Shown here: positions 36,581 through 64,000 of the stretch, in pieces
Position numbering within the stretch: the stretch's first letter is position 1
Layout of the letters: each line of letters starts with the position of its first letter
Position numbers and translations under genes: made by a program
Assembly: GCA_004431415.1 (NCBI GenBank)
Contig: QPMI01000587.1
Coordinates: 45,205 to 109,204 of the forward strand
Direction of reading: 5' to 3'
From: Cyanophora paradoxa CCMP329
Taxonomy: Eukaryota; Plantae; Glaucophyta
Length of the DNA stretch: 64,000 nt
Notes under the pieces: model-generated
Seen by the model: only the letters and a program-made list of their open reading frames with translations
What the model was told of the DNA's origin: nothing
Databases searched by the model: none

Positions 36581-36582
36581 TG

Positions 36583-40794: not shown

Positions 40795-40910
40795 CTAGTA
40801 GAGTAGTGGTAGTTAGTGGAAATCGTGGAAAATTGGAACGGAAGTGGTTTAAGAATTTTTTTTCTGATGAGCTGTGGTGGAAGCGAGATACCCCTGCTTA
40901 AAAGCATTTT

Positions 40911-43278: not shown

Positions 43279-43549
43279 CTAGTGAACTGTACAAAACAAG
43301 AAAGCTATCGGCGTCAACCAGAACAAGTTCAGTGGAAACCACGTGCACGACACAACACGTGCAGGGAAACAAGGGCCCCCCGAATGAAGCTGAAGAGCGC
43401 AGAAAAGCGTACCCGAAGGCTAGCGCCTTCCCGAAAAGCGGAATTGAGCAGGGCCGCCTCAGCAGGGCGGGTTGCACCTGCCTTCGGCTAGCGTTCTGTG
43501 CATTTTCCCCGTGGAAAGTTTCTGTGTGCATTTCATCTCGCAAGAGGAT

Positions 43550-44375
43550 ATGATGAACGTCTGACAATTTTTTCTGTTTTTAAACCCTTGCGAGGCTCTG
43601 ATGCTATTCATCAGCTCCGAGCTGCTTCCAGTTGGAAGAACATCCGCCCTCGGCGCCTCTGCTTTTCTTCGGCGACGAGGAGGGCGTTCATGAGTTAGCT
43701 GAGGTTTTGAATGCCACACACGTTGCCGATGTACACCGAAATGATCTCGGAACTCCAACGATAGGAGCCTTGTTCGCTGCCGCTTTCCTTCATTCGAACT
43801 CGTGTGTCCTGGAATTCGGACATTTCTCTATCGAGATCAGTCGGGATCGTCATGTCTCGATCGAGATCTCTAGCAAGTCTGCTTTGACGATCTGAAAACC
43901 TTCTTAATGGTTGGAAGAAGGCATACTATTTCATTGGCATCGAATGCGCGGATCTCTGATTTTTTTCGGAGGCAATTCTTCTCGAGTTGAGCGAAGGTCA
44001 TGCAGACGAAGATGGAGCTCTTGATTACTTTGTTTACAAGGGATTTCTGGCAGAATCAGACAATTCCGAACTTCGCGATTGGACGGTTCGCATCGGATAG
44101 CTGGCTGCTCGCTGCGGCATTAAATTCTTCACGAGCCGTTGTAGATGCTAGTGATGTTGTGCGGGCAATTCATCCGTTTCATGTCTATACTCACTCCGGC
44201 ACAAATGAATCATGGAATCCGAAAAAATTCAGCTGAGGCCCAGCACAATTTAGAGCTGGCTTCTTTAAGCACAGAGCAAATTATTTCATCAAGGCTCCGA
44301 TCTGTGCATCTGAAACTTTGCATGACGGATGCAGCCTCTGTCTATATCTGCAATATGCAGGGGGAGAATCGGTAA
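43550..44375 (+). pseudogene. GT-A-like glycosyltransferase, frameshifted or spliced
   Basis: Pieces TIFSVFKPLRG..Q.RA..SW, LFFGDEEG..GTP and IPNFAIGR..DSWL..DAS..AIH in different frames. Confidence 0.5.
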
Positions 44376-45022
44376 GTTGAGCAAAAGTGCGGGGGCAAAA
44401 TAGGTGAGCAAAGGCACAAAAGCATCATGAAATCAGCCTCGGGTCATCAGCTCGGTGGGATACGAAGAGGCTTCTGTTTTCGCTGTCATGCTGTTTGTGT
44501 GTCGGATTCATCGCTTCCCCGATTTTTGTTTTTTTGGCAGCGCGGATCACGAACAACGGTTCATGATCAAAGCTCATCCCAACAATCGACGATGAATGAC
44601 TTGAAACAATCATTGATGTCTGAAAAGCGGATTGCCTGACCGCGTAACGATTATTGTGTATTGACAATGACTTACAAGACCGATAAATAGAATGCATGGC
44701 AATTAAGGAATACGGCTAAATGATCGCTTGCCCATTGATCTTGCCGCGGGGGAGTGACCCAGAGGGTGGCGTATAGGGGCCAGATCTGACCTGGTCCTTT
44801 CCCGTCCAAAGGTGTGTTTTTCGGCGATCAATCATTTCAAGTTCGAGGCCCCCGAGGGGGCAAGAAGTGTTGTATTTGTCGGTGGAAAAAGCTTTGGGAT
44901 TCCATGGTTGGGCGATGGGGGCGAACCGCAATCCCCCTGAGTCGCTCTGTGCCCCATGATTCGTTGATATGTCAGTTGAATTCTCAGTTTGTGCAGCTCT
45001 TGCCCATGCCCAGCCCTAGCCC

Positions 45023-46357
45023 ATGAAGGCAACGCATTTGTTTTTCACATACGCATGCCCTCTCTCTCAAGCGATTATTCTTCTTCGACACGAGGATTTC
45101 AATTTCATTGAATGTGTGTCAATAGTCTGTGTGAACTATCTTTTCCGCTCGCAACAGTCATGTGTGTCCTTGCCGGATCTCGATAGCGCGTTTTTTGCGG
45201 GATCGTGGGTGGTTCAACTCAACACTCCGAAAATTCAACTTAAAGATTTCGACGTCGTTCGCAAATCTTTGCTATCTGCCCCGTTGAGTTTAGAGAACCC
45301 CAACGTTGCATGGGTAGTCCCCCTGCGAGCAGTTTCGTTTCGCTCCCCACTTGTGGTAAACCACGAGGATCTTGCTTCTTTGCGGCATATAGCAGTTGCC
45401 AAGAAATGCGATGAAATCGATCTCACTAGAACTGCCCCAAACCCTCCTTACCCGTGGTGCTGGGGACGGAACTTTAAAATGCATTTTTCAAGGCACCAAG
45501 CCGTGATTACTGTCCAAAACGTCATCATTGGACGAAGTGGAGTCGTGTACGATAGCAGCAAGTTCTACTCGTATGAACCATCGTTCATCATTGAATCAAC
45601 ACCAGAAGATGATGTTGAGCGATGTGTCGAGTTTACTGAAATTGCTCTTGCAATTGCCGAGTGGTATCATCAAGGATATCATCTGTTCATGGAAGCCTTT
45701 CCTCGGTTTCTGTTTGTGTTGGACTTCTTTCGCCAGAATACGCATCTGCCCCTTATTGTCCATGGCAGCACAAAGACCTTTTGGATCGAGATGTTTTCTA
45801 TCTTACATCTTGACGCTAGCCGCCTACTGACCACCACAAATTGTGCAATAAGAGCGAGCATTGCTTTTCTCTCTCTGTTTGCTGATTTTCGATTTGGATA
45901 TGTCCACATGGAATCCTTACTCCTTATCAGAGAAGCGTTCAAAGATCATATCTTGAACCAGACCCAGTCTATTGTTGTTGTCGATCGGACAGGCTTCCAA
46001 AGGAATTTTCATGCAACAGGGAAATTGATCCAGTTACTTGAAAAACATTTTTCACCGTCCAAAGTGGTACCATTTAGAGGCCACCAACTTTCTAGAGTGG
46101 AGCAAGCGAAGATATTCAGCTCAGCGAGAATTATCATTGGACCACATGGTCAAGACTTCGCTAATCTTGTCTTTTGCAATCGAGGCACACTGGTTTTTGA
46201 ACTGCTTCCAATTGAAGGGAATTGCCATAATTATCATATGATATCAGAACTTCTTCAATTGCGCTATGTTGCTTTACCATGGGGTACATGCCATGATTGT
46301 AATTTTGACAATGTATATCCTGAAAGAATTATGGCTGCTGTGAAGCTGCTGACCTGA
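45023..46357 (+). CDS. GT61-like glycosyltransferase
   Basis: GYHLFMEAFPR; EQAKIFSSARIIIGPHGQDFANLVF; VFELLP. Confidence 0.88.
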   Translation: MKATHLFFTYACPLSQAIILLRHEDFNFIECVSIVCVNYLFRSQQSCVSLPDLDSAFFAGSWVVQLNTPKIQLKDFDVVRKSLLSAPLSLENPNVAWVVPLRAVSFRSPLVVNHEDLASLRHIAVAKKCDEIDLTRTAPNPPYPWCWGRNFKMHFSRHQAVITVQNVIIGRSGVVYDSSKFYSYEPSFIIESTPEDDVERCVEFTEIALAIAEWYHQGYHLFMEAFPRFLFVLDFFRQNTHLPLIVHGSTKTFWIEMFSILHLDASRLLTTTNCAIRASIAFLSLFADFRFGYVHMESLLLIREAFKDHILNQTQSIVVVDRTGFQRNFHATGKLIQLLEKHFSPSKVVPFRGHQLSRVEQAKIFSSARIIIGPHGQDFANLVFCNRGTLVFELLPIEGNCHNYHMISELLQLRYVALPWGTCHDCNFDNVYPERIMAAVKLLT

Positions 46358-46509: not shown

Positions 46510-46712
46510 TTATCAGGAATGCAGGAGCCGGATCCTGGAACATTTGTGTGGGTTGGAGGCCACTGGGGGGAAACCCCTGCCCCCCCAACTGAGGCCCTGT
46601 AATAGGCTCGGACATTCCGAGTGGGACTCCCACTGAGTGTTTAGGGATTTGAACTTCATCTTGGGTTCACTCCCTCTCCACCTTGGTGCACCTGCCAAAG
46701 GCTAGCGCCTTG
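46510..46712. repeat. Host repeat copy interrupted by the virus-like element
   Basis: gctagcgccttg stops where other copies continue tgcat. Confidence 0.75.
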
Positions 46713-47088
46713 ATGAAATTTAAAAATATATATGAGGGCCATCAATGGGCCAAACGCGAAAAGTCAACTCCGAGAGCTCGAGACTCGGAAGTGACGCTTA
46801 GATTGCGGAGGTTCTTATAACCGCCGCAACAGCTGTGGGGGTACCCCCTCCGAGGCTGGCGATCGCGGCGATCACGACCCTGGCGATCGCGATTTTCTCC
46901 CGATCGCGACCCTTTTCGATCGCGATTTCGAGATCGGGGACATTAATGCGATCGCGAGAAAGGAAAAATCGGAAAAGGCCGAAAAGTGCCGTTTTCACGC
47001 GTGAAATCGATCGAAAACGAGGGTTCGAATCCCGGGCCCGGATTTGGACTTGGTCAGAATCTCGAGTCAAAATGGGAGAAAAATGTGA

Positions 47089-47150
47089 CCTGGGACTTGG
47101 GACTTGGGACTTGGGACTTGGGACTTGGGACTTGGGAAGAGTTAGAATCA
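47089..47150 (+). repeat. (TGGGACT)6 plus TGGGAAGAGTT cassette, copy 1
   Basis: Directly visible. Confidence 0.95.
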
Positions 47151-47194
47151 GAGTCTGGACTCAAAAGCGGGGAAATTTTCGGACGGGGAGAAAA

Positions 47195-47683
47195 ATGTCA
47201 GGCAATCTCTATTACGATTTCCCCTTTGAGTTGAATATGGCATTCGAGAGGCTGCGCGAGTTCTGGCGTTGGCACCTCACAGGACATGACATTCCCGACA
47301 TAACACCAGAGCCCAACACACAGGGCGTGCTTGAAGTCATCCGTCAATATCCGCGTCGATTCAATGAATGGATCGAGTTCCACGCAACGAACCGTTTCCA
47401 GAGTCTCCCCGAGGCCATACGCGAAAATTTCGTGAGGCTGGTGGGACCAGGCTACGACAACCCTAACAATCATAGACCACGCCCAGCTGGCGTGACGCGC
47501 GAAGCTCGAGAAGACCGTAGACTTTTCCGCAGGGAATTGAGAGAGGATAGACGGAGGCTTTCAATGGGGCTCCCGCAGATTGTGAGGGGGTACAGCCCGG
47601 ATTACGAGACTTACCAAGAATTGTACGGCTTCGAAAATCCCTTGAGAGGGTACTACCAGGGTGAGGGCCAGGGGGGCCCCTGA
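47195..47683 (+). CDS. Hypothetical viral protein (162 aa)
   Basis: ATG in AAAAATG context after TTTTCGG motif; open frame. Confidence 0.6.
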   Translation: MSGNLYYDFPFELNMAFERLREFWRWHLTGHDIPDITPEPNTQGVLEVIRQYPRRFNEWIEFHATNRFQSLPEAIRENFVRLVGPGYDNPNNHRPRPAGVTREAREDRRLFRRELREDRRRLSMGLPQIVRGYSPDYETYQELYGFENPLRGYYQGEGQGGP

Positions 47684-47998
47684 GGGTGTACCCCCGGCCC
47701 GAGACTCGACCTTCGGCGGACGCACTCGGGCGATTTCCGTCAGGCCGGCTCCTTTTTCTGCCTTCGGCCAACGCTAAATTTGGCTTTTTTCAGGCCAGTT
47801 GGCAACGTTTTCCGTTGCGAACTAGACCGCGAAAAAAATCGCCACAAAACCGCGGTCCGCCGCCATTTTGGCTCACTCTTGAAACGGGTTCGCCGCCTTC
47901 TCTCAGCCCAAGGAATCCCGCCTCTCCGAATTTTCACAAGTCCGCTCTCTCAGTCACCTCACGTTTTGCCTTTGCTGATCTCTCTTCCCTTTGCGCAG

Positions 47999-49046
47999 AT
48001 GTCGATTCCCTCTGAGCTTGTCGAGGACCTTGCCAAGGCCGCGAGATGTGGACTAAGTCCGCGATTGGCCTACCCGTGAAATGGAGAAGCGTGCCCGCAA
48101 GCTGGGGTACCTCTACCAAGCTCACAGCGGAGAAGGCTTCATACCATCAACCTCAACTTTGTATCCTCCCTTCTGCCCAAGTCCAAGCAACCCAAGCCCG
48201 AGCCCAAGCCCGAGCCCGTCGACGTGCCCCCGTCCCCGGCTGGGTCAAGACTCCCACTGGCTGGGGCGACCCCAAGCTTTTCGCCGAGTCTGCCGCCGAG
48301 ACGCTCGCCTGGGCCTATCCCCCTCAAGTCTTCACGAATTTCCCCCTCCGTCATCGTCGTCATCTGCCCCTCAGCCCGTCGCCGAGCCCGCTCCCGAGCC
48401 AGTCGATGACGCCGAGTCCGAGGCCTCTGACGCCGAGTCTGACATCAACGACTTTATCGACTTTGACGTGCCGATTCAATACGACTCTGAGTCCTCTTCC
48501 GACTCTGAAGGCGACAACGAAAACCCGACTCGCAAGCGCCGCATTATCAAGACCAAGTCAATCGTCAAGAAGAAGTTCATGGAGACCACGTCATTCACCG
48601 ACAACTCCGAGCGAGTCAAGAATCCCGCCAAGGAACACGAAAAAGACTTGAAGATCGGCGCTGGCATTGCCCGTTCTCGCGTGACGTCACACTTCAGCAA
48701 GCGCCTGACTCAGCACGTCAAGATCATTGAGAAGCGCATCATCGCCAAGCGCGAAATGGCCGAACTCCGGCGCAAGTTGCGTCACGAGCGCCTTCTTCGT
48801 CGCGAGATGACGCTGGCCAAGATTGCCGAGCGCAAGAAGAAGGAGGCAGCGGAACTTAGGGCGCGCGTCGAGGCTCAGCAGCGGCGCGAGGCAGAGGCGG
48901 CAGCGGCCTTGGCGGCGCAGCGCGAGCAGGAGCGGCAGGACTTAGTGCAGGCAGCGCAGGCCCTTCCCCGCATTCCCCTTAAGTCCACGCCCGAGGCCCC
49001 GATTGACTTGGTTTCCGACGATGACTCTGATTTTGAGATGCTGTAA
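47999..49046 (+). CDS. Hypothetical viral protein: Pro/Ser-rich, acidic, then basic coiled coil (5' part frameshifted)
   Basis: ORF 48081-49046; RKRRIIK NLS-like; ends PIDLVSDDDSD; upstream ATG at 47999. Confidence 0.55.
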
Positions 49047-49117
49047 ATAGTATTGCGTCATTCCACTGTACATACTGGTAAAAATTGGCCGACTATTCAG
49101 TTATGACTTGGCGCGAT

Positions 49118-49185
49118 CCTGGGACTTGGGACTTGGGACTTGGGACTTGGGACTTGGGACTTGGGAAGAGTTAGACTCAGGGTCT
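49118..49185 (+). repeat. (TGGGACT)6 cassette, copy 2
   Basis: Directly visible. Confidence 0.95.
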
Positions 49186-49464
49186 GGGCCCAGAGTTTCA
49201 CTGGATCCGAGAGTTTGCTGCACCAAGTCACTAACCACCGGGCAGACATTTCGAGGGGTACGGAAATCCGCATACGACGTTTCTGGTGACATTCCAGGTG
49301 AGATTTCAAGTGTGATGTCGTGTGACAGGGGGTACGATTACGGTTACGAAAGATGGTAAGAGTAAAAAAGACTACGAGTAAAAAAGACTATGATTAAAAA
49401 AGTCGGTAGAAAAACTCACCTGACTTGTCTGACAAATTTCTGATCCTGGAGAAAGTCTGGGACG

Positions 49465-49525
49465 GGACCTGGGTTTCAACTCTTCCCAAGTCCCAAGTCC
49501 CAAGTCCCAAGTCCCAAGTCCCAGG
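49465..49525 (-). repeat. (TGGGACT)5 cassette, copy 3 (inverted)
   Basis: aactcttccca(agtccca)5gg. Confidence 0.95.
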
Positions 49526-49546
49526 TTTTTCCGAACCTAGGGCAAA

Positions 49547-49912
49547 ATGGCCCTGCTCCGGTGCACCGACTCGCAAGACGTCGCCTACAACGTCCTGGTC
49601 AACTCGGACGTACCCCCGAGTGCCTTGGAGTTTCCCTGGAGAGTGGACAGGGACAGGGTGAGCAAGACATTTGGAGGACGCAAGCACTACCTCTCCCAAC
49701 TGATCCTCGGGAAGTCGCCACGTGGACGCTACGTGGAACACATCAACGGCAACCCGCTGGACTACAGGAGGGAGAACCTGCGCTGGGTATCGATGTCGGA
49801 GATTCGAAAGAAGAGGAGGGGGTACAGCGATCTACAGGGGAAGAGCGAGGAGATTGCGGAGATGATGGAGGCGGCGCAGGCGCTAGTGCAGCTCAGCCAG
49901 TCTAGACGCTAG
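49547..49912 (+). CDS. HNH endonuclease-domain protein (HNH_3-like)
   Basis: YVEHINGNPLDYRRENLRWVS. Confidence 0.85.
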   Translation: MALLRCTDSQDVAYNVLVNSDVPPSALEFPWRVDRDRVSKTFGGRKHYLSQLILGKSPRGRYVEHINGNPLDYRRENLRWVSMSEIRKKRRGYSDLQGKSEEIAEMMEAAQALVQLSQSRR

Positions 49913-50684
49913 TGGTGTGGATCTTAGTGTCGTACTCGCGGTCAATCGTGCTCCAGGCCACGTAGTTCGTAGCGGTGCCGTTTGCAAGGTTGGTGGTGGC
50001 AGTCGTGTAGTCAGCCTCCGCCTCTATCAACTCAGCCATGAGCGTAGAACCCACGACCATTCCAGAGGTAGGCATACCCGCAATGTTGTTGTACAATTTG
50101 AAAGTGAATTTCGTGAAGAGGAGCCGGGGCCAGACCTGGGTACGGGGATTCGAGGAGTCGAAAGCAAAGGCAGTACCCGAGGCGCCGCCCGTGGTGGCAT
50201 TCGTCATCATTTCCTTTGCGGTCATCTTCCAGAGATTGTACATCTCAAAGGGGACGGCCTGCGTGGTCTTGTGAGTGGCATCGATGGCGGCGCCGTCTAT
50301 GTGGGTCTTGGAGCCGCCGTTAAAGGTGCGAGTGAGGGCGGTGTTCGCAGTGAACTTGAGCTCGAGCACTCGGATTGCGGGCCGATCCGGCACGGAGGGC
50401 TCTATCTTTTTCAGGAGGCCAGAGAGCCAGAGGGCCTCCGCCTCGTCCGCGCTCACACCCGAGTCGATGTCAAAGTACACGTACACGGAGCAGGAGGCGG
50501 GATTCTCGAAATCGTTGGAGGTGACGCGCAGCATGATCGGATTCTGGATCTTCACGGTCAGCATGGAGGCGTAGCTGCCGTCCCAGACCACGGAATCCGT
50601 CCCGGCGTTGGCCGCTGCGACATCGCCGTAGAAATCGGGGGTGGGCAGCACGGTCTTCACGATGGTGCTCGAGGTGGAAGGCAT
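49902..50684 (-). CDS. Beta-rich putative virion protein, paralog 2
   Basis: ATG at 50684 (AAAATG); shares QNP, FD, SGL.KK, R.LE.KF and PR..FT.F.F with 50708-51388. Confidence 0.65.
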   Translation of the reverse strand: MPSTSSTIVKTVLPTPDFYGDVAAANAGTDSVVWDGSYASMLTVKIQNPIMLRVTSNDFENPASCSVYVYFDIDSGVSADEAEALWLSGLLKKIEPSVPDRPAIRVLELKFTANTALTRTFNGGSKTHIDGAAIDATHKTTQAVPFEMYNLWKMTAKEMMTNATTGGASGTAFAFDSSNPRTQVWPRLLFTKFTFKLYNNIAGMPTSGMVVGSTLMAELIEAEADYTTATTNLANGTATNYVAWSTIDREYDTKIHTTSV

Positions 50685-50707
50685 TTTGCGACCTCGGATG
50701 AGAAAGA

Positions 50708-51388
50708 TTATCCGTAGAAGAGGGCGATGTCGTTGCCGATGCCCGAGAGGCGGGCGGCGGGCTGCACGGCGTCGGAGCCCGTGGTGTGCCTGTAGGAAAT
50801 CGAGCACTCGCGCAGCTCCGCGCAGAGGCTGGGGCCCGTGCTGAAGTGGGGCTGGTCGGCGGCGTAGGGGAGGGGGAAGACCTGGAACTTGAAGAAGGTG
50901 AAGGGGAAGCGGGGTAGCCCGGAAGCGCGCGGATTGCCGCCCGTGTAGAGGGCTCCCAGGGTCGCGGGACTCGGATTGAATTTCGTGAAGAGCACGTCGC
51001 CCTTAAGCGTACCCCGCGCCGTGTACGCACCCGTACCCGGTAGACTGTTGTCGGTGTACTGGTTCACGGTGGGGCCGTACCCCGTCTCCCTGAACTTTAC
51101 CTCGAGACAGCGCAGGACGTTGGCCGTGGCCGTGGCAGGCGCGACCTTTTTCACGAGGCCGGATTCGTGCAGCAGCTCGATTACCTCTGCGCTGAGGCTC
51201 AAAGGGTCGAAGAAGAGCTGGTAGGAGTAGATCTTGGGCGTGGCGTAGGCGTTCTGAACGGCCTGAATCACGACGGGATTTTGCAGAAAGACGTCCACGT
51301 AGCTGCCAGAGGAGATGCGTGCGAAATCCTTGGCGTTGGTACCAACATCCAGATCACCTTTGAGGGTCTGGTACCAGTTGGAAGTCAT
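50708..51388 (-). CDS. Beta-rich putative virion protein, paralog 1
   Basis: TAAATG start; motif colinearity with 49902-50684. Confidence 0.65.
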   Translation of the reverse strand: MTSNWYQTLKGDLDVGTNAKDFARISSGSYVDVFLQNPVVIQAVQNAYATPKIYSYQLFFDPLSLSAEVIELLHESGLVKKVAPATATANVLRCLEVKFRETGYGPTVNQYTDNSLPGTGAYTARGTLKGDVLFTKFNPSPATLGALYTGGNPRASGLPRFPFTFFKFQVFPLPYAADQPHFSTGPSLCAELRECSISYRHTTGSDAVQPAARLSGIGNDIALFYG

Positions 51389-51425
51389 TTACACCGGGGC
51401 AGATATTTTTTCGGACTTGGGGGAA

Positions 51426-53441
51426 ATGAGGAGGGTGAAGCGCATTGTGTTGATGAGGCGGAGAGGGCCACGTCCCCTTGGACCCCCACAGAACGTGTCG
51501 GTTACGCGCGTGCCTGGTCAGTTTGCGGCTTTGATTGTGTGGTCCCCTGCCGCTGAAGCGGAAGGCTATGGTGTGAGTCGCACGGTTGGAAGTATAACGG
51601 GCACCCCTATCATTTTCAGTAATGTCACTTCACCATTCACGAACTCCAACCTACTCCCTGGTCGCCTCTACCTCTACACGGTCTTCTCCTACCGGGATCT
51701 GACCGACTCGGGGGGACATATGAAGATTGCGGTGCCCCCATTGTCAGTATCATGATGCCCACGTCGCTCACATCCTCCACCTCCCAAACCTACGGCGATT
51801 TCATTGCGGGGGAGGCCCCACATCGCAGTCCGTACCCCTCCCCACTGTGGTTGTCACCATCAACTGGGAGGCCTTCGTGGACCCCGTCGACGAGATTCGC
51901 ATTTACAGGGATGGTGCATTTAACGGCATCGCAAACAATGCGCTATCGACCTCGTACACGGACGACAGCAACTCCCTGGTGCGCGGCACGCAGTACTCCT
52001 ACCAGGTAGCACCCGTTGTGGGCGGCATCGAGTACGAAAAGTCCGACCCGATATTGGCCTGGACGGTACCGAACGCGCCCACGAACGTGATTGCGAGCGC
52101 GCCCAACGACCAGCAGCAGCCTGTGAGCCTCACCTGGACGGCGTCCATGGGAGCGACGGGGTACAAGATCTACAGGGGCGGGGCCTACCTCGCAACCTCC
52201 GCGACCAACTCCTACAGCGACGCGACCACGATCTGGGGTACGGGGTACGAGTTCCAGGTCTCCGCGACGAACTCGGGGGGCGAGGGGCCGAAGGGCATTA
52301 CAGTCTACGTCACAACGGACCCGGGGGCGCCCACCGGGCTCACTGCAACTCCAACGGCGGGGGCAGCCCAGCCTGTGGTGCTTGCGTGGTCCGCGCCGGC
52401 GATGGGCGTCACCGTCTCCTACAACATCTACAGGGACGGCGTTTTCCTTGCGAACGACACCAGCAGCCCGTATTCGGATACAACAACAGCCTATGAAACC
52501 ACTTACACTTACATCGTCAAGGGTGTCAATCAGATTGGCGAGGAAGGCCCCCCATCGTCGTCAACAAGCGCAACTACTGCAACCGCTCCTGTTCTGGCTA
52601 CATTCTCCTACACCGGAGCTCCCCAGACCTGGGTCGTACCGACAGGGACTATGGCCATTCGTGTCATCATGTGGGCAGCCGGGGGTGGAGGCGGAGAGCA
52701 TGCTGGTTCGGGGGTCCGGGGGCGCGGGTGCTTGTGTCGTTGGTACACTGGCCGTGTCCTCGGGGAAACGCTCATCCTTGTCGTTGGATGCGGTGGTCCG
52801 AAAGGTGTATCGGGGACTGCCACTGCTACTGTCTACGGAGGGGGCGGAAGGGGCTGGAGTCATAGCATCGACCCGGAATACAAAAACGGTGCCGGTGGTG
52901 GGCGTTCTGCGATCCAACGCATTTCTGGGACCGATTTGGTCGTTGCCGGGGGTGGGGTGGGGTACATGCGATTCATCCGGAGGCGGAGGAGTAGGCGGGG
53001 GGCTGACCGGTGGTTCTGCTGAACCGGTTGGCTTAGCCAGTGAGGTGCCAGCTCAAGGAGGCACTCAATCCTCTGGTGGAGCCGGTGTTGTAGCAACAGG
53101 GGCCAGGCCCAGCAACCCAGGAACTTTACGCCAAGGTGGTGAGCCCGGCCCTGATCCAAACGGCTGGAGGTGGGCGCTGGGGCGGCGGCGGTTACTTCGG
53201 TGGGGGTTCTGGGTCCAGCAAGAGCGGAGTGCCTGAGGCCCCGTTAGCAAGAATGTTTGGAGGTGGCGGCGGCTCGAGCTACATTGGCAACTTGACGAAC
53301 GCTACGACCTACCCCGGGTCAGGGCAAACGGCAGGAAACAGCGACAGTCCCCACTACGTTGCTGGCATTGGCAGGGGTGGGAATGGTGGGTCAACGTTCA
53401 GCGATGGCGGCCACGGTCACATAGTGATCTCGGTGGTCTGA
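51426..53441 (+). CDS. Fibronectin type III repeat protein with C-terminal glycine-rich domain (several frameshifts)
   Basis: Repeated P..P.....L.W......Y.IYRDG....Y.D....Y.Y.V; FSYTGAPQTWVVP; GGGGSSY..DGGHGHIVIS. Confidence 0.8.
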
Positions 53442-53451
53442 TATCCATTTG

Positions 53452-54515
53452 TTATTGGTTCTGCAAAGCGGCTACCTGGTCTTTGAGTGTTTGAACTTCC
53501 TGTGCAAGTTCTTGTACTGCTTTCAGCGTCAAGGAAATAAGCCTGTCATAGTTTACCCCCAAAAATCCATCCGCGTTTTCAAAAACAAGGTTCGGCAAGA
53601 CACCTTGAACTTCCTGTGCAATGAGACCGTAATCAATTTTCGAGCCCCCGGAGGTTGTGTTGATCCAATTAAAGGACACAGGGTTCAACTGCAGTAAAAG
53701 AGGGAGAATGTTTGCCAGGCTGGTGATATTTGCTTTCAGGCGGCGATCGCTCGAGGAGTTTGTAAGGTTACCACTGGCATTGGAATAAACGGCCCTGTTT
53801 CCGTCGCCTGTGAGCGATGAGACGATGAGCTGACCCGTTATACCCACGCCGACGGTTCCGCACAGCAGTCGATCGCCGCCATTGTATTTCAAGGTTAGGC
53901 CAGCGGTGACACTCCCACAATCGATTATTGTAGTGTTTTGCATAGACAGGCCGCCAGAAGGGCCTTCGACGGTTGAGGCGAATAGTTTACCCGTTATACC
54001 GACACCTTCAGTCCCGCACAACAGCCGATCCGAGTCACCGTACTTTAGATTTAAGCCGCCGCCACCGCCTGCAATGGTCGGAGTTGTCCCGTGTATGTAG
54101 ACGCTGTTGTCCAGTGCTACTGTACCTGCTACCGATGCATTTCCGTTCACTCTTAGCCCACCCACCACGTTTGCCCCGCCCCCCTGCACGTACAGCGCTG
54201 CGTTCCCTCTCCATCCGCAGCTCCGTTAAAGGTTAGGGCGTTTGTGGTGTGACCACTCCCGTCCCAGGAGCCGTTCGTGACGGTGAGCCTCTGCGTCTTC
54301 ACGCGCCCCGGCACGGCCGATCCGCCCTCCCGCGTGCGCATCTTATCGCAGCGCAGCTCGCCGACTCGCACGAGATCGGCCTCGGAGAAGGGGACGGCCG
54401 TGGCGTTGTAGGGGGCCTCGGTGGCCTGGTTTCCGAGGGTGGTCTCCTTAATCGTGTGATCGCCCTTGTGATTCACGCTGGCAGCGTAGGTGAACAAAGG
54501 AACAGCAACTGACAT
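53452..54515 (-). CDS. Fibre protein with C-terminal Peptidase_S74-type intramolecular chaperone (frameshift ~54190)
   Basis: SSDRRLKANI..LNPVSFNW..GLIAQEV..VNYDRLISLTLKAVQEL plus coiled coil; two LKY..DRLLCGT.GVGITG repeats. Confidence 0.88.
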
Positions 54516-54539
54516 TTTTGGATTGCATCAGAAAATCGA

Positions 54540-57500
54540 TTACATAAGCAGCTTGCCCGCTGCCATCCAGTAGATCGTGAGCCGTTTAGATTCGATGATC
54601 GTTTCTGACATCGTGGGCCTGAACCTCACTCTGACGACAAATCCGGTGTAGGTGACGTCGTAGACGTTCACTGTCATGTCGACATCCACTCCAAGTTTTA
54701 TGGATGGGGTAACTGTTACGTTTGGCGGTGGGTTCCCCCCTGGCTGGGGCCATACAGGTAACAAGCCACCACCTGCGTCGTACGCTTCCGGGAAACTCAT
54801 GTTGAACGTGACAATGTATGTTGTGTTGAGATCGAAAGCCGTGTTCGCGGAGTACGTGTGAAAGAAAGTGCCGTGTTGAATGTAAGCGTCCATGTTCACG
54901 TTTCTGTGCCCGTGGCCGGTGAGCGAGTACTCTGTGTGACTGTGCGTAGAGGGGGGGAAGGTGAGAGGCTTCCCCGTAACTTGAGTCTCCCAGTCCACGT
55001 TGTGACTGTGAGTCGAGGGGGGGAAGGTGAGAGGCTTCCCCGTAACTTGAGTTTCCCAGTCCACGGTGACGCCTGACAAGTCCGGGGCCGTCCAGTCGCT
55101 GATTTCTGAGATGGTGTGCTGGTGATCTGCGTGGGGGTACGTGCTCGGCTTCCCCGTGATGTTACCCCACGCCCAAGTTGCTGGAATTGTCGGTATCATC
55201 GGCCTCCCTTTTAGATCTTGGTACTCTCCTGTATGCGCCACGGCCGCCAGCTGCGGTACGGCAACGCCCACGGTGCTGACGGCCTGGCTCGCCCCCGGCG
55301 CCATGTGCCACTCGTAGTTCTGCGATGCAAACACGGGCTGGCCTGGCTCGGGTGCCCAGTACTCGATGCCTTTGGCGATCTTTTTGGTGTAAGGGGCTGC
55401 AGGCCTGTCCACCAATTTATCGACGTACGCCTTGGGTACCAGCCAGTTGGCCTTGGGGCTCTGCGAATTAATCCCGTTGTCTATGAAGGCCCCGTAATTC
55501 CTGAAGGCCTCGGCCTCCCACCAATCCTGCATGCGGAAGGTCCCGGGAATTTCAAGGCGCGAGTTAGCGTCCGCCAGGCGGGCCACCTGCGCGCCTCCGT
55601 TCGACGAGACGCCCGAGTGACGGATGGCCGAGCCGAATTCGCGCCTTAATGCCTCGATGTGATTGATTCTGTTGAGGCCCTCCTGGTAGACGGCTATTAA
55701 GACGCGCTTCCGCCCCTTGGTCTCCTCCTTCACCATCTGCTTCAAATCGCGCATCAGCCGACTCAGGGCGAGCGAGGTCGACCCGAATCCCTCCTGCATT
55801 TTAACGGTGAGCTGAGAGAGGAAGAGCACGGTCGCCGTCAATTTCGAGCAGAGTCTTCTGGTCCTTGGGGGTACGGTAATCGTTGATGCTGTTATCGAGC
55901 GCGCGAATGAAGCCTGCAGCTCTTCGGCTCCTTATTTCGTTTAACCGCAGCTCCTGCGCCAAGAGCGAGGCCATTTCGCGCGCCTCCGAGGGGTCGTACA
56001 CACCCAAAACCGGAGCCCAGCTCGCCCTCTACCTATTAATTCGGTTGCGCAATTGGCTCGCCTCGTCGCCCCACGTCTCGACGCCCCAGTCGTAGATCTG
56101 TTGCGAGAGCTGCGCGATGAACTGATGGTATCGGCGCCCAGTCGACGGGGTACTTGAAGAAGTTCTTCACGATTTCTTCCGCGCTGCGCCCGTTGATATA
56201 TCCACGATCACCTGCGCGATGGCGCCCGCGAGGATGGACAGGCCAAGTCCCCCACCGTGCCGATCCTCATTTTCGTGAGGGCGCTCAGGGCGGACGACAT
56301 GCCCGTCTGCAGGCCAAAGGAGCCGACCGTCATGATCATCTGATCGCGGAACGTATCGAAGAACTCGCCTCCCTATCTGCCCTGCGAGAGCGCCTGGTAG
56401 GCCGAGAGCAGGCCGCCCGCCGTCGCCAGCCCAAGGCCGGCCGCCGCCGCGCCCGCCCGCCGCATGGCCCGCGAGCCCGTACCCCCAGCCCGGCGCCCAC
56501 CAAGTCGATCCCGCCCCTGAAATAAATCGGCTGCCCGAAAGACATGCCTCGTTGTTCGCCGTACCCGCCGCGAGAAGAGCGTCTCGGCGCTGAGGGCCTC
56601 CTTGGCCACCCCGGGCCGCCTTGCCCTCGGGCGCCCCAGGTAGGCGTCGCGCTGCTCTTTGGTGGTAAATCGCTCGAGGTCGAAATCCGCAAGGGCGTCG
56701 GCGGTGGCGCGGTTCCAGTCGCCGTAGGGCATCAGGGCGTTGCGCAAAATAACGTCCGAGTCGCCCATCACGCGCCTGTCGAGCGTCTGGAATACGCCCT
56801 CGGAGGGCAGGCGAGCTGTGCCCGGGCGCATTTCCTCCACGGAAACGTCGTCCCTCTCCGCGAGCGTGATATCGTCCGGGCTGGCCGAGCCACGCCCGCG
56901 CCCTCGTCGGCGTAGGCCCTTCCCCTCCTTTTTAACAGTTGATTGGCCTCCCGTTCAATGCTTGGTACTCTGTTCTACCTTGGTCTTTCTGCCTCTTCCT
57001 CTGCCGCCTTGCGCTCTGCGATCTTCCGCCTCTGCTCTTCTATCTCGGCGTTGCGTCTCGCCGCGTTCTCCTTGCCTGCTGCTTCGCTCTTCGATCACCT
57101 GTTTGCGTACTCCTTGTCCGCTTGGGCCTTTCTGTAGCGCTCCTCGATCTGACTCTTGGCCTCGTCTCCTCTCTTCCTTAGTTCGCCTATGAACGCCGTT
57201 GTATCTATGTAAAGCTTGTATTTGGCGGGTGGATGCTCACGTTTAAGGCCTCCAGATCGCGCACCATGGCGTCGTACTGTGCAAGCCCCTCCGCTGGAAT
57301 GACGGCTCTTCGCTTTTCCCAAAACTTGCTCAGCTTCTCCACGTAATTGACCATGCCGACGTACGCGCTCTGTGCGCCGATGCTCACCGTTTTCGGATTG
57401 GCTCGCAGCTCTGCCAGAAACTCCCGCTTGTACATCCCGTACATTGACGATTCGAGGCCCCCGCCACAGGCTCGCTTCGTCCGCAGTTCGCGGTGCATCT

Positions 57501-59546
57501 CCTCCGCGTCGCCGTATGCTATCCAGATGGCATCGCTGATGGCCTCTGAACTGCTTGCGCTCAAAGTTTTTCCACTTCTCATCGGCCATCTTTCTCCTCA
57601 GTCTTCGCGTCTTTCTGGCCCCTCCGACAGCTGGTTCATCACATATGTGAATCGTGAATGTCATCCCCGAGAGCTCGTATTTTCTCGCCGTTGCGCGATT
57701 CGTTCTCTTCAGCTCTCGCATCTTTGCCCCATGCATCGAGGGTGCGTTCTTGAAGGCCTCGAGGGCCCTCTTCCGCCCCGCAACCTTTGGCTCTCCAGAC
57801 GTGCAAATTCCTCGTCGATGCAGTTTGCATTGCCTTCAGTCGTTCCTCTTCTGTCTTGGCGCGCCTCTCGTCGCCCTGCGCCGCTGCTCTAACGCATCGA
57901 AGAGGGCCCTCTGGTCCTCGATCGTGAGGCCGATGAGCTCTTCACCTGGTCGCTCCTACCCAGACGCGCAAAGGGTAGCCTCTCGCGCCGGCCTGGATCG
58001 GGCCTTGGCGTCGTCTGCGTCTCCATTGTGCCCCTTGGCACAGCCGTCCTATCCTCTGCAGCTCGGCCGTCAGCGTTTCACTTGCTGCTCTAGGTGAATC
58101 GTATGTGATGCGACCCCTCTGCCTTCGCCTCTCCTGTCTCGCAGTTCGAGCTGCCTTAAATCCTCCTTTGCTTTTCTGGCTGCTCCTCCGCTCCTTTCGC
58201 TCATCGTCCAGCATCTTTGTCCTCTTCGACCTCGTTTGCTATGTTGACCTGTTTCATTTCCATGTCCAGTTTCTTCGGTCCTTGCCTGCTCCTTGCCTCC
58301 CTTATCGCTTTCCACATCCTATCGGCCTCTCTCTTCGATCTCGCTTTCCCTCGGCCTCCAGATTCTCAATTCTATCGCTCGCCTCTTCAAATCGTCCGCT
58401 ATCTTTTCTCGCGCTGTCCTCATTCGTTAATGCCGCTCCTGTCTTCAGCTCCTCGCCAGTATCTCCCTGCTCGTCTGAGTAACGATCGTTTTGTTATCTT
58501 CTGCAGCTCTGCAATGTCCTTTCGTACGCCTTCCGATCCCTGTAGTACTTTGCACCGCCTGCAATCAGGGCCGCGCCGAAGATTCCCGTTGTGTACCAAG
58601 GATCGGCACGAGCGTACCCCTCCGCCGTCTCCGCCGAGCCGCCGCCACCCGAGCCGCTGCTACCCCCGCCCCCTCCCACGGGCGTGCCACTGAGCCCCCT
58701 CCACCCGTACCCCGCCTGTACCCCACCCCCCGTACCCCCACCCTCCCACCCCTGTACCCCGCCTCCCGTGCTTCCGCCGCCCGTACCCCCACCCGGAATC
58801 GCGCCCGGCACCTTGGGCCCGCCGATGATGTCGTCGTACAGGTGGCGGTGCGCCCAGTCCGTGATGTCGGCCTTCACTGCGGGTGCTTGACGAGGGCGTA
58901 CCTCTCGTCGTGGAAGTGGTCCTTCAGCGCCCAGTTCTGCGTTTCGCCCAGTCGAGCGATCGGGGAGCACGTCGGGTGCCGTTGGGATGCGGCCCCCGCC
59001 CGTCGTCTCCGGCGTCTCGCCCGTCCTGTCGGCGCTCAGGGCGCGGATGTTCACCTTGAAGTGGTCGAACCACGCGAAAAACTCCTCCCTGTCGCGCCTG
59101 TACTGGTCGGGCTCCATGCTCGGCAGCGCCTGGCGGCTCCAGTAGATGTGGCGCAGGGGGCCCGCGATGCGCTCGAGCGCGTTGTACCCGGGCCTCACGT
59201 CTCCCTCTGCGCCCTTTAGAGTCAGTTTCACGAGGTTCAGGGTGGCGTCCTTTGAGGTGACCGAGTTTGCGATTTTCACGTCGGCCGCCCTCTTGATAAT
59301 GTTCCAGTCCACGCCCGTCTCGGTCGTGACGCCCCAAAGCCCCTTGATAATTGCGGTGAGGTCACCGTAATCGTCCAAGGTACCGACGGACGTCAGGAAA
59401 TCGCTGTAGGTCGCGCCCTTGCGCAGCCGAATCTCGTCCGCGTAAATTCCCCTCACGCTCAGGCTCCCGTCTATCGCGAAGGCGCCGTTCAGCACCTCGT
59501 CCGGATTCGGGATGGCCATGCGCCAGGGGTCGTCGAGCATCGACAT
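54540..59546 (-). CDS. Very large putative virion/fibre protein (~5 kb, multiply frameshifted): Gly linker, coiled coil, fibre repeats, H-type-lectin-like tip
   Basis: Overlapping ORF pieces tile 59546-54540; LAAVAHTGEYQDLKGRP; HQHTISEI; two VDWETQVTGKPLTFPPSTHSH; PPNVTVT..VTYTGFVVRV..YWMAAG. Confidence 0.6.
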
Positions 59547-60032
59547 TTTATCCGCGAGAGAGAAAAATTAACTAATGCTCCGCGTCCCACGTCCACTTCA
59601 GCTTGCCGCTCACCTCGCCCGTTGTCCAGCGGCCCACGGGCACCTGCCAGAAAACGTCGGCGTAGGGTAATCGGGCCTGATAGTGATCTGCTCGTCACGC
59701 AGCCAGCGGTAGGCCTCGGAGCATCGCGTATTTTCGGCTCCCAGTATTCCCCGCCCGCGCCGTTCGGCAGCGAGTACCCCTCCCTTGCTACCCGTACCCT
59801 GTAGAAGTGCTCGCCCGTTAGCGTGTCTACCCCCTGTACTCGAATTCTACGATTAAGGCCAAGTCCTGCATGCGCTCTCGCCGAGACGGATGTGACTGAG
59901 GCTGTGCAGCAGCCCGCATTTAATTGGACCAGAGGCGGTTACAAGATCGACTCTGTAAGTGAGGGTGAGGGGTAGCCTGGCACGCCCGCAAAGGTGCGCG
60001 TCTTGACGCCCGAGCCCTTCCGCGGAATATGA

Positions 60033-60509
60033 TCAGGCGCATTTAAGGGGCCTGCGAAAATCTATTTCGCAAAGGCCCAGAGGCGAAGTTCTTGACGATG
60101 AAGGCGTTGTTCTTCTGGTGGCGCCCGTGATGTCGGTGAAGCGCACGCGCAGCTCCTGGAACTTGTCGTACGCGACGTAGTTCGGGCGCACGGCCATGGG
60201 CACCTCGAACCAGTAGAGGATGGTGTTCTCGAGGCCGTCGTGGCCCCACGTCGGGATCACGACCTTGTTGATGCACGAGTTCACGTTCGAGATGGTCGTG
60301 ACGTTCAAGTCGGGCACGTCCATCAGCAGAACGTTGACGGTTTTCGCGGCGGTGGGGTCCGGAATCGCGGTCGTATCCAGCTCCAGGTAGACTCCCTTGA
60401 TCTGCAGCGTGTCGATGTCGGCGGGGATCTGGTTCAGCCTGAGGCGCCAGAAGCCCTCGGAATCCTGCGTCTCTCCGTTCGACTGGACGTAGAGGTTGAC
60501 GCAGGACAT
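60033..60509 (-). CDS. Putative minor capsid (penton-like single jelly-roll) protein
   Basis: ~150-aa beta-rich ORF with the pattern LYVQS..L.L..LLMDVP.LN..VIP..KFQELRVRFTDITG; recognised by eye only. Confidence 0.55.
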   Translation of the reverse strand: MSCVNLYVQSNGETQDSEGFWRLRLNQIPADIDTLQIKGVYLELDTTAIPDPTAAKTVNVLLMDVPDLNVTTISNVNSCINKVVIPTWGHDGLENTILYWFEVPMAVRPNYVAYDKFQELRVRFTDITGATRRTTPSSSRTSPLGLCEIDFRRPLKCA

Positions 60510-60740
60510 TATTTAGGAAGGGGCCTGAGAAATTATGCCTTCCTCAGGCCGTGAGGAGGTAGGGCCCCACGAAGTAGTAGCCCGCGAACTGCGCGGCGAG
60601 GATCCGCACGAGGTAGTAGCGGCGGGCGACATGTAGGCGACCGCGCCGAGGGTCAGCAGGCTGCCCAGGTAGCGGGAATCGCTGGTGATATCATCGAGGC
60701 TCGGGAGCAGGACGACATTGTTAAGGGCCCATTCAGAAAT

Positions 60741-60953
60741 TTACTTGGGCATGAAGAAATTCCTCACCCGCTCCCCCTCCTCGTGCAGCGCCCACTGCAG
60801 CCGGTCGATGACGGCGGCCATCACGGGCGGGCTCGCGGCGGGGTTTTTCGCGTACGCCCTGGCGTCCTCTGCCATCTGGGGGTGGTACTGCTCGACCCGC
60901 TTGGCGTAGCTCGCGATGGCGCGGCGGGTGCACCGATCCAGGTCAGCCGCCAT
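60741..60953 (-). CDS. Small hypothetical viral protein (70 aa)
   Basis: AAATG start; stop abuts a TTTCT spacer. Confidence 0.5.
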   Translation of the reverse strand: MAADLDRCTRRAIASYAKRVEQYHPQMAEDARAYAKNPAASPPVMAAVIDRLQWALHEEGERVRNFFMPK

Positions 60954-61386
60954 TTCGGCCGGCTCCTTCGCTGCTGCTGCTTCTTTCGCGCGTAAGTCCT
61001 AAGAAGCCAAGGGAACGCTGTGCTGGTGCTGGTGCTCGTACTGTTGCTGCTGCTGCCGGGCAGGACGACGGAGCCTCTGCGCTGGGGGCTGTTGTCGCGG
61101 GAGTCTCCATTTCCCATTTCTCTAGAAAAAAACGCGTACCGGTCTGCGTCATCTGGATGTCCACGTGGTGCGGGCCGATCGCCTGCACGCTCTCGCGCCT
61201 CTGCTGCTCGGGTGGGGGCTCGGGCTCGGCTCGCCGCGACGCACGACCCTCAGGGCCGCCGCCTTCAGGGCGCCCAGCACGGTGTTGGGACGCACGCGCT
61301 CCGTGCCGCCCAGGAGCTCGGAAACCAGGAAGAGCGCGCCGCAGATTACGTGATGACGTCCGAGTGGGTGCATGCCCCTCGAACAT
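60943..61386 (-). CDS. Small membrane-associated viral protein (frameshifted)
   Basis: Hydrophobic VICGALFLVSELLG..NTVL segment near the ATG at 61386. Confidence 0.4.
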   Translation of the reverse strand: MFEGHAPTRTSSRNLRRALPGFRAPGRHGARASQHRAGRPEGGGPEGRASRRAEPEPPPEQQRRESVQAIGPHHVDIQMTQTGTRFFLEKWEMETPATTAPSAEAPSSCPAAAATVRAPAPAQRSLGFLGLTRERSSSSEGAGRNGG

Positions 61387-61407
61387 CTTGCGGGCGCGTC
61401 AGAACAA

Positions 61408-63424
61408 TTACCCGCTACCCCTGCCCTTCCGCGCCCCTTGCCCTTTCCGCGCCCTCGGCCCTGGCCCTCAGATCGCCGATTTCCGCGGCCTGCGCGCAAA
61501 GCGGGGTCGTCCGCCTGGCCGGCGTCCGCTTGGAAAATCGTGAAGAGGTACCCGTCCGTGTTGTTGTCGGTGTTGTTCGTGTTTCGCGCGTGCGACCACT
61601 CTTTCAGTAAATCGCGCCTCTGCTTGTCGGGCAGCGTCTTCGAGAGGTACTCCTGCAGCTTGCTCGCGTAATTTTCCTCCGGAATCAGCGACGCAAGGAC
61701 GGTGGGCGGATCTTCCCCATGCCTATCTTCTCTTCCGTCAGCATGCGCTCGAGCTCTGCGATTTCCACCATCGTATCGATGCTCGCTGCGGTCCTGCCTC
61801 TGCTCTCTTCTGGTCTACGAGGCGCTGCCCGGCCGCTGTGAATTTCGCGGACAGAATTTGGTGCAGCCGCTCGTACACCGTCGTGGTGCCCGGCTCCTTC
61901 TCCTTGAGCAGCACCACCCAGTCGTAATTCGCCCACAAGCACCTGCAAATTCGATATGTGATCGATCGTCACCAGCACGTGGGCGTGCAGCGCCCCGTCC
62001 GTCGGCCCCACCTCACGCCCCTTGCACGCGAATTCCGATGATTGCGTTGGCGTACGTGTCGTCCTTGTACTTGCCGTTCTCCTCCTTCAAATTGAAGCGG
62101 ATGAACTTGTAGAATTCTGCGTCCGAGAGCACCTCTGCGAGGCTGTCGCGCAGCGCCGCCGCCTCGAATTCTCGCGCCTCTCCCAGGCGCTTGTGGTGTT
62201 GAAGAGCACCCAGTAGCGCGACTGGCGCGCCTGTCGTATGTCGTACCGCGTGCTTCCGTCGGGATTCTTTTGTTGAGGATGAAGACCGACCGCCCCGTCT
62301 CGCTGATTTCCGTGATCACCTTCTCGAGCGCCTCCAGCCCGTTTGCCTGCGCCGCCTGCAGTCCCGTTTTCGCCTTCTCTATGTTCTGCTTTACCTCTTG
62401 CGCGTCCGCGAAGGTTGCCATTAAATCTTCCATGCTCGGCGCCACGATTTTCGCCTTTCTGATTTTCGACTGCGCAGAGTTGGGCTCGATGACGGACGAT
62501 CCGAAGTCAGCGGCCGTATCCTTTGCCTTTTTCGTGGTCTTTGGCTTCGGCCCGCCGAGCACGCTCTCGACCATGTGGTCGCGCGTCTGCTTGGAGACGG
62601 TGGCCGTGTCGCCCCTCTTTCGCCTCTGCAGGCCCAAGATCACGAGCAGGCCCTTGTTGCCGAGCAGCGTGACGCACTTCTGGCAGAGCCACGAGTTTCT
62701 GGGCGACACCGTGGGCACCTGCGCCGGCTTCTTGTCCTTGATGAGGGGGTACGGCTCCTGGCCCTTTTCTTTCCCTTGCCGTTTTGCTTGGCCGCCCACG
62801 CGTTTGCCTTCTCTATGACCGCGACGTACTCTTCGTACACGGCATCCTTCCTCGCCTGCGCTGCCTCCCTCGCGGCGATTTTCTCTGGCGTGTTGGCCCC
62901 CTTGGCGCTCGGCACGGGCGTGGCTTCGTACATGAGGCGAAGGCAGCGGTAGCAGATTGGCGGCGATTTCTGCGCGCTCTGGTACGTGCGCGGTATGGCG
63001 CGCAGTCGCTCCTCGGGGAGTTTATCGTACTCGATTTCGCTGTGGATGCTCCAGAGGGTCGCGGCTCGTGGTATGATTTATCGAGCAGCGATGGGAGCAT
63101 CTGAACTTCTTTGGTGGCCGAGAGCTTGATGTATCGGATATGCTCTTCTGCTGCTGGAATATGCCGTCCTCGCCCTGAACCAGCACGTATCGCTTCGGAA
63201 TCTCAACGACGGGCGTCTCGAGCTCGTCCACGCCGGTATCGGGCGCGTTTCCCTTTGCCTTTCCCTTTCCCTTCCCCTTGCCCTTGCCCTTCGGCTTAGG
63301 CTCCGGCTCCTCTTCCTCTTCCTCCTTCTTCCTCCGACTCGGAGGACGGGGACGTGGGCTCCTCTTCCTCTGACTCGCTCGAGCTCTCTGGCTTCTTCTT
63401 GCGGCCTCGGCGCTTCGGAGGCAT
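61408..63424 (-). CDS. Long HUH-domain protein: NLS/acidic N-terminus, two CxxC pairs, C-terminal HUH endonuclease (frameshifted)
   Basis: MPPKRRGRKKK; CYRC, CQKC; YWVLFNT; EVGPTDGALHAHVLV (61979-61987); LIPEENYASKLQEYLSKT (~61640). Confidence 0.75.
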
Positions 63425-63445
63425 TTATTGGACACGAGAAAAAAT

Positions 63446-64000
63446 TTACACGAGCTTTACAGCGCCCGTCTCGAGGGCCTCTACCGTCTTCGTAATGTAC
63501 AGCTGCAGCAGATCCTTAAGGTTGCTCTGCGGCAGCAATTTTACGTCTACGTGCATCTGCCTGGCGGTTTCTCGCTTCCTGTAGCCGTCTCCTTGCCCGT
63601 CCACTGCATGCCGAGGCGTCCTTTCTCCGTATCGGCCGCACCGCCGTCTTCTGGTACTCCTCCCCGAACAGTCTCCTTGTAGAAATTCGGCAGGCCGCCC
63701 TGCCCCTCCGTTGCATGAACTTGATGAGGAAATCCGACGCCTTCTTGCCGTCGAATTGCACGCGCGAGTAGTCACCAGCGTGAGCAGGATGTGCGCGTGG
63801 AGCCGCCCCGACCGCGGCCCGTACTCGATGCCGATGTTCGCGTTGCCCTTCTCCACGTGCGTGTCGTACTGGTCGACTTGAAATCGAAGCCCTTGGGTTC
63901 GCCTTGTCGGGGTACACCCCCATCTTTATGCACCGCGCCAGCTGCCTGTCGTCGTAGAAGAGGGCCTCCAGCCCCCTGTGAAACGCGTCCTGCACCTTGG
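63446..64000 (-). CDS. HUH endonuclease (rolling-circle initiator-like), 5' end outside window, frameshifted
   Basis: IEYGPRSGRLHAHILL (63791-63799); LLPQSNLKDLLQLYITKT (~63490). Confidence 0.8.

Follow-up and report, generated by a model that had tools for sequence, protein, structure and literature searches.

Paired HUH endonuclease genes, one short (HUH) and one long (HUH_long), have been described in mriyaviruses of the 'Gamadviridae' (Yutin et al. 2024, PMC11253617). According to that description, HUH is present in all mriyaviruses, the N-terminal region of HUH_long is termed uncharacterized, and in Pleurochrysis sp. endemic virus 2 (PEV2) HUH and HUH_long are genes 11 and 10, respectively; rolling-circle replication of mriyaviruses is a prediction from sequence only. 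The main text of the paper speaks of neither zinc, integration nor endogenisation, and its supplements do not name Cyanophora. In the first 20 rows of its table, which the PEV gene columns led us to treat as gamadviruses, HUH is recorded for 20/20 genomes and HUH_long for 14/20, though some of the six absences may reflect incomplete contigs.

A search with a HUH_long alignment found nine IMG/VR virus contigs, and in 9/9 the short gene lies directly upstream of the long gene on the same strand, with spacing that ranges from an 11-nt overlap to a 39-nt gap. Seven of the 13 loci found with a short-type alignment are on these same contigs, three are on contigs that end soon past the short gene, and three have no adjoining long gene. 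The gamadvirus-type contigs L013, L017 and L022 carry a short HUH without an adjacent long HUH, and in the first two of these the short gene is flipped with respect to the genes that usually lie upstream of it. Downstream, gamadvirus loci contain three large opposite-strand ORFs in which no Pfam family (helicases included) was found. The one gamadvirus-type record searched for it contained VLTF3 above the Pfam cut-off (E 3e-19).

The 64,000-nt stretch of DNA analysed here (hereafter the window) holds such a pair, with near-identical counterparts among gene models labelled Cyanophora paradoxa (a glaucophyte alga, by the EukProt label obtained through cluster look-up). The short-plus-long pair is a published arrangement, and the window is a compact new example of it in a multicopy algal element. 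Like gamadvirus HUH and HUH_long, the two genes are adjacent and have intact motifs I–III; as in HUH_long, the HUH domain of the long protein is C-terminal and has no fused helicase. Gene order and spacing, an RQSR-type motif I and two CxxC pairs are likewise shared with gamadvirus-related contigs. The long protein differs in length (676 aa here, compared with 1,048–1,934 aa in 23 sampled HUH_long proteins and ~1,570 aa in PEV2) and in having a basic start, an acidic tract, R/K-G tracts and an insertion before motif III. The element also differs in its neighbour genes, for which no match in the gamadvirus set was found, and in its association with a glaucophyte rather than a haptophyte, in many chromosomal-type copies. 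Genomes of 35–45 kb with no DNA polymerase and no integrase are characteristic of Gamadviridae and Mriyaviricetes; the window holds only ~14–17 kb of the element.

Mriyaviricetes-related viral regions are also embedded in a Glaucocystophyceae assembly (bioRxiv 10.1101/2025.04.19.649669). These regions and the window element probably belong to one element family, although HUH does not occur in the main text of that report (0 occurrences). Some of the mriyavirus-like viruses Zora (VC102) and VC218 resemble the element in having an HUH endonuclease together with mriyavirus core genes, but most have an RVE integrase, and the account of them reports no HUH_long (bioRxiv 10.64898/2026.06.19.733378). 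The element may already be annotated in the supplements of these two reports. Single-tyrosine rolling-circle initiators and HUH transposases (SIRV1 ORF119, IS200/IS605 TnpA and parvovirus NS1) share a ferredoxin-like core, the motif order I-II-III and one Tyr, and pT181 RepC is a functional parallel to the HUH pair. All four, however, work as homo-oligomers from one gene, whereas the virus-like element, a large dsDNA one, keeps two diverged genes next to each other. The literature searched, which was thin on subscription papers, contained no compact HUH_long, no R/K-G tails and no account of the HUH_long Cys pairs.

Layout of the HUH gene pair

The pair occupies the right end of the window, with the following features:

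63446..64000, minus strand: 3' part of the short HUH endonuclease gene (a predicted ~280 aa in full; 7 frame changes)
63776..63829, minus strand: motif II of the short HUH (ExG...HUH, metal-binding), from motif match and His conservation in relatives
63485..63538, minus strand: motif III of the short HUH (YxxK, single catalytic Tyr), from motif match and Tyr/Lys conservation
63425..63445, minus strand: 21-nt spacer between the short and long genes, T-rich at its start and A-rich at its end
61408..63424, minus strand: long HUH gene, likely a compact counterpart of gamadvirus HUH_long (676 aa in intact copies; 12 frame changes)
63245..63424, minus strand: lineage-specific N-terminal stretch of the long protein (NLS-like basic start, acidic tract, KG repeat)
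62943..62954, minus strand: first CxxC pair (CxRC) of the long protein, matching the invariant CxRC of HUH_long
62674..62685, minus strand: second CxxC pair of the long protein, agreeing with HUH_long by order only
62195..62227, minus strand: motif I of the long HUH (RQSR...H, HUH_long type; the short protein has the ESNF type)
61964..62014, minus strand: motif II of the long HUH, from motif match and His conservation
61635..61688, minus strand: motif III of the long HUH (YxxK), from motif match and Tyr/Lys conservation
61408..61470, minus strand: lineage-specific RG/KG repeat tail at the C-terminus of the long protein

The long gene runs from an ATG at 63424 to a TAA at 61410-61408 and begins 21 nt past the stop of the short gene, which is truncated at the window edge with ~94 N-terminal residues, including motif I, lying beyond 64000. 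The preliminary description of this DNA had proposed tandem short and long copies of an HUH endonuclease, both keeping their catalytic motifs. The genes are indeed adjacent, but the short copy is incomplete, cut by the edge, and the two HUH domains are only 24% identical (44/181 aligned residues). All four motifs quoted in that description were recovered on the minus strand and are conserved in relatives. They also stand beyond chance: a profile built from seven short models finds 219 relatives at E<=0.001 (150 listed).

The pair had further been described as hidden by frameshifts, and this was borne out, with the four motifs scattered across several reading frames of the window and 12 (long gene) and 7 (visible part of the short gene) frame changes relative to intact models. 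Because of this scatter, Pfam names none of the gene pieces; Pfam and PHROGs gave a name for neither the short nor the long protein. The NLS-like basic start, acidic tract and two CxxC pairs attributed to the long copy were present. The statement that no helicase is fused to it agrees with the intact long protein, in which neither a Walker A motif nor any Pfam family of helicases was found. A fused short-long protein was considered and rejected, given the stop codon and 21-nt spacer between the genes; fusion appears only in the spliced models P0184 and P0014.

Intact copies and the frameshifts

The names of the near-identical short and long EukProt models, which carry the Cyanophora paradoxa label, point to 30 contigs, among which the window's own contig and duplicates within the assembly may be counted. 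Searches with window reading frames returned 14 near-identical short models and 7 long models, and wherever a contig lists models of both types, they bear consecutive gene numbers (4/4). Three long models are 676 aa in length and 100% identical in alignment; in P0172, one of the 676-aa models, the HUH domain covers about residues 395–610. When P0172 (intact, 676 aa) was compared with the window, exact runs covered 660/676 residues and were separated by 12 frame changes; with the seven in the visible part of the short gene, the window's copy of the pair has 19.

Contigs from four short-read runs have one additional base relative to the window at all 12 of the indel places shown (of 40). Several short-read pieces differ from the window by 3–6 gaps and 0 substitutions, and a piece over 61535-63242 differs by 10 gaps and 16 substitutions. 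Since gaps come without substitutions, long-read error fits these data better than decay, and the frameshifts are most likely long-read assembly errors. The short-read contigs merge many element copies, however, so decay of the window's own copy may be compatible with the data, and only 7/12 indel places touch a homopolymer of at least two bases.

The intact long proteins fall into two subtypes (P0172 and P0175 types) with 62% identity in the N-terminal and 75% in the C-terminal part, while the short proteins encoded alongside them are nearly identical. Such divergence of the long subtypes beside near-identical short HUHs points to recombination or to a long gene that changes faster.

Conservation and fold of the HUH domains

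Among the matches listed, relatives found by the short-protein profile are mostly 150–340 aa in length, and also include proteins of 1,000–1,900 aa that match C-terminally. The preliminary description had named conservation of the His and Tyr residues beforehand as a point on which an HUH assignment could fail. In the short-type alignment (107 rows, with long and partial proteins left out) both His are present in 107/107 rows and the Tyr and Lys in 106/107; in the long-type alignment (24 domains) both His are present in 24/24 and the Tyr and Lys in 22/24. Each protein has one catalytic Tyr, with no conserved second Tyr at +/-4 of motif III in either the short or the long type. A YxxxY two-tyrosine motif was rejected: a Tyr is found at +4 in 1/106 short-type and 0/22 long-type rows.

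In the Atlas, the short protein sits next to clusters of rolling-circle Rep proteins (score 0.95–0.96), with PF23343 on 24–40% of their members. The nearest relatives were P0015 and P0016; locus searches of viral and metagenome contigs, with the frameshifted window frame or close alignments as queries, found no relatives. A search of PDB sequences returned one match only, which was unrelated (E 0.8).

We modelled the fold of P0015, which is 54–57% identical to the short protein (pLDDT 74.6), and its Tyr259 lies within helix 252–265. In a wide structure search with this model, the top row (Z 7.2) was a non-HUH protein, and six HUH proteins were among the top 50 at Z 5.3–6.8 (none reached 8). 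These HUH-type matches comprised TnpA, TrwC, bocavirus NS1, SIRV1 ORF119 and TraI. TnpA structures ranked second and third (2ec2, Z 6.8, rmsd 2.9, 104 aligned residues; 2vhg, Z 6.3), level with unrelated ferredoxin-like folds; other matches included 4kw3 (Z 5.4) and 2x3g (Z 5.3 at 24% identity). Foldseek of the same model against PDB gave nothing at E<=0.001, and against BFVD it gave one strong unnamed match (E 2.4e-12, 793 aa) and weak Rep matches at E of about 0.002–0.005. The modelled fold of this close relative appears compatible with HUH but is not decisive; the HUH assignment rests on the motifs. For the long protein, a model built on a shallow 10-row alignment was unusable (pLDDT 33.6).

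Relationship of the long protein to HUH_long

The long protein matched the HUH_long profile with probability 96.8% (E 2.8e-10), and the RQSR motif I is common to both; the deeper short-type alignment scored higher (probability 99.1%, E 1e-18). In a quick tree of 90 rows, the long protein was sister to HUH_long with SH-aLRT 85, unstarred and on a long branch. A careful tree (LG+G4) of 41 of these rows, chosen by hand, gave the same position (89/85), again unstarred and on a long branch. Local duplication, in which the element's own short and long proteins would form one clade, was rejected (p-AU 0.0014) in an AU test run after the first tree was already known. The duplication that gave rise to short and long HUH is probably old and would predate this lineage.

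The Cys pairs bear on the same relationship. Two CxxC pairs (four Cys) are invariant in 23/23 HUH_long proteins, and the window long protein has them in the same order. For the first pair, the profile score lay above 500/500 shuffles in both subtypes; for the second, it was not above shuffles. The first pair (CxRC) matches the invariant site and is likely to provide zinc ligands. Other parts of the protein vary: a basic start is found in 1/23 gamadvirus-type long proteins, runs of (R/K)G are at most three in all 23, with the R/K-G tracts confined to the present lineage, and the N-terminal part of HUH_long ranges from about 390 to over 1,500 aa. The long gene is likely the counterpart of HUH_long. 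The window protein would then be a HUH_long of less than half the usual size, hinting at two CxxC pairs plus the HUH domain as a minimal shared core, and easier expression would be expected.

Proposed roles of the two proteins

We consider it fairly probable that the pair is of the gamadvirus HUH/HUH_long type, with the short protein likely acting as origin nickase and the long protein likely as an accessory second nickase. Rolling-circle initiators begin replication with one Tyr and finish it with another (PMC5714925); as set out in that source, the two Tyr events may be served by a single chain with two Tyr, as in phiX174 A, or by two subunits, as in pT181 RepC. Because each protein of the pair has one catalytic Tyr and rolling-circle replication needs two Tyr events, a split of roles between short and long proteins, as the preliminary description suggested, is plausible. 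The short protein would bind a divalent metal through its HUH motif, and its Tyr would cut single-stranded origin DNA, freeing a 3'-OH for host polymerase; the helicase would be separately encoded or supplied by the host. Its basic start, Cys pairs and R/K-G tracts may bring the long protein into the nucleus and onto DNA, where it could give the second Tyr that terminates replication, closes circles or resolves intermediates. Since the short gene occurs in 20/20 gamadvirus-pattern genomes and the long gene in 14/20, we infer an essential role for the short protein, as initiator, and an accessory one for the often-lost long protein, whose nickase activity would be helpful but not obligatory.

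A homo-oligomer of the short protein could, however, supply both tyrosines. If it did all of the replication nicking, the long protein would be left with another job (for example, chromatin tethering, regulation or packaging processing), its HUH domain serving mainly as a sequence-specific DNA clamp. EBNA1-like tethering would be a parallel for chromatin tethering by the long protein; a literature search on it found nothing. We regard this division of labour as unlikely. It would fit the absence of the long gene from six of the 20 tabulated gamadvirus-pattern genomes and from 3/13 short-alignment loci (with three more cut by contig ends), the variable length of the N-terminal part, the divergence of the local long subtypes beside near-identical short proteins, and the R/K-G tracts at both ends of the long protein. 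Yet the long type strictly conserves both His as well as the Tyr and Lys, which favours catalysis, and the R/K-G tracts are missing in other long proteins and so cannot explain the family.

Strand transfer by AAV Rep and some relaxases joins DNA strands, and AAV Rep mediates integration. On this model, which takes up the preliminary description's idea of endogenisation without an integrase, the long HUH might itself nick single strands of both virus and host and link them through strand transfer, acting as the integrase and giving entry to the chromosome without RVE or a tyrosine recombinase, a reading that we find distinctly improbable. Gene models on 30 contigs, many of them near-identical, and the position of the element beside a dispersed host repeat and retroelements can be cited in its favour, as can the second and third rank of TnpA structures in the P0015 search, although their scores tie with unrelated ferredoxin-like folds. 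No integrase family was found among the element ORFs scanned in the window, and mriyaviruses are reported to lack integration genes (bioRxiv 10.64898/2026.06.19.733378); the right half of the element, beyond the window, may nevertheless carry an integrase, frameshifts can mask genes from Pfam, and related HUH-bearing groups have RVE in 57–62% of genomes according to the same report. Moreover, HUH_long is conserved in viruses known from metagenomes, and insertions of this kind have been read as mostly accidental (bioRxiv 10.1101/2025.04.19.649669).

In a fuller version, to which we give very little credence, an integrase-less mriyavirus lineage colonised an algal genome dozens of times; the short HUH would fire rolling-circle replication, and the long HUH, pared down to a nickase with two zinc sites and DNA-binding R/K-G tails, would serve as a chromatin-tethered strand-transfer enzyme that closes circles and joins viral ends to host DNA. 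If true, the strand-transfer reading would give the giant-virus phylum its first case of HUH-driven integration, and the host would be an alga that can be cultured. With dozens of near-identical copies present in a single alga, junctions could be compared so as to weigh HUH chemistry against accident as the source of integrase-less insertion.

That the long gene arose separately and resembles HUH_long by convergence, or that the window copy is a decayed pseudogene pair, is the least credible reading: the long branch with unstarred support, the length of 676 aa against 1,048–1,934 aa, the different downstream genes, the 19 frame changes and the fact that no more than 7/12 indel places touch runs of equal bases could be taken in its favour, but duplication from the element's own short gene was rejected (p-AU 0.0014), HUH_long has the same type of motif I, the CxRC site and the same gene order and spacing, three 676-aa models are 100% identical, and the gaps relative to short-read contigs come without substitutions.

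The surrounding element

The pair is accompanied in the window by further genes of the element:

49902..61400, unstranded: rest of the virus-like element in the window, with genes co-linear in other copies (tail-fibre-like, S74 chaperone, FN3, tandem paralogue pair)

Of ten window ORFs looked up, five had exact database entries; on other contigs, members of their clusters keep this gene order next to long HUH models. Because of this co-linearity, at least the stretch from 49.9 to 64 kb is one repeated element. Searches with 17–18 conserved gamadvirus-locus gene clusters found no match at E<=0.05 among the other window genes (those upstream of the pair fall outside the window), and the best match among eight intact element models was at E 0.096. 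No mriyavirus-type MCP, packaging ATPase or VLTF3 was seen in the window, which holds the left part of the element, and none of the best 120 of 396 matches in a VLTF3 search was labelled EukProt. Capsid, ATPase, VLTF3, helicase and any integrase genes would, if present, lie to the right of the window.

Nearest the pair, a 158-aa ORF (60033-60509, minus strand) is kept across copies; Atlas scores for it were all <0.8, and we presume a resemblance to a small jelly-roll minor capsid protein. Frameshifted pieces at 54543-59546 (minus strand) map to single models of 1,395 and 1,682 aa elsewhere, with no Pfam family, and may be one very large gene. The region 51315-55841 contains an FN3-repeat gene, a tail-fibre-like gene with a Peptidase_S74 chaperone and a repeat-bearing tail-like region, which are likely virion fibres. 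Two tandem paralogues on the minus strand (49902-50684 and 50708-51388; 260 and 226 aa, 30.6% identical) have no Pfam family, and their clusters have 11 and 13 further members on contigs of the same assembly.

At the left edge of the element, beside a hairpin unit, lies an HNH endonuclease gene (49547-49912, plus strand; PF13392 above cut-off). Heptamer arrays at 47075-49532 (six copies at 47092, six at 49121 and five inverted at 49488) give rise to a 408-nt hairpin unit and to inverted arms of 49 nt that enclose 2.4 kb. The sequence 49118-49525 folds as a long hairpin (z -11.3) and 46713-47200 does so weakly (z -2.4); no tie between either sequence and the HUH proteins was found. This heptamer and hairpin region may mark an end of the virus, an origin or the insertion of a small element. 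A dispersed host repeat (46584-46713 region) stops near 46,690, just before a rise in GC, and its end is a candidate left junction of the element.

Further left, 32204-46357 is low in GC and contains intron-less glycosyltransferase ORFs (GT7, two GT61 and a galactosyltransferase) amid repeats; the two of these that were looked up had no exact database entry. The region 3916-25886 holds open Ty3/gypsy-type polyproteins (1428 and 1998 aa) and a LINE-like endonuclease/RT pair, and a 428-nt direct repeat (17890-18317 and 26904-27331) flanks one element in the manner of LTRs.
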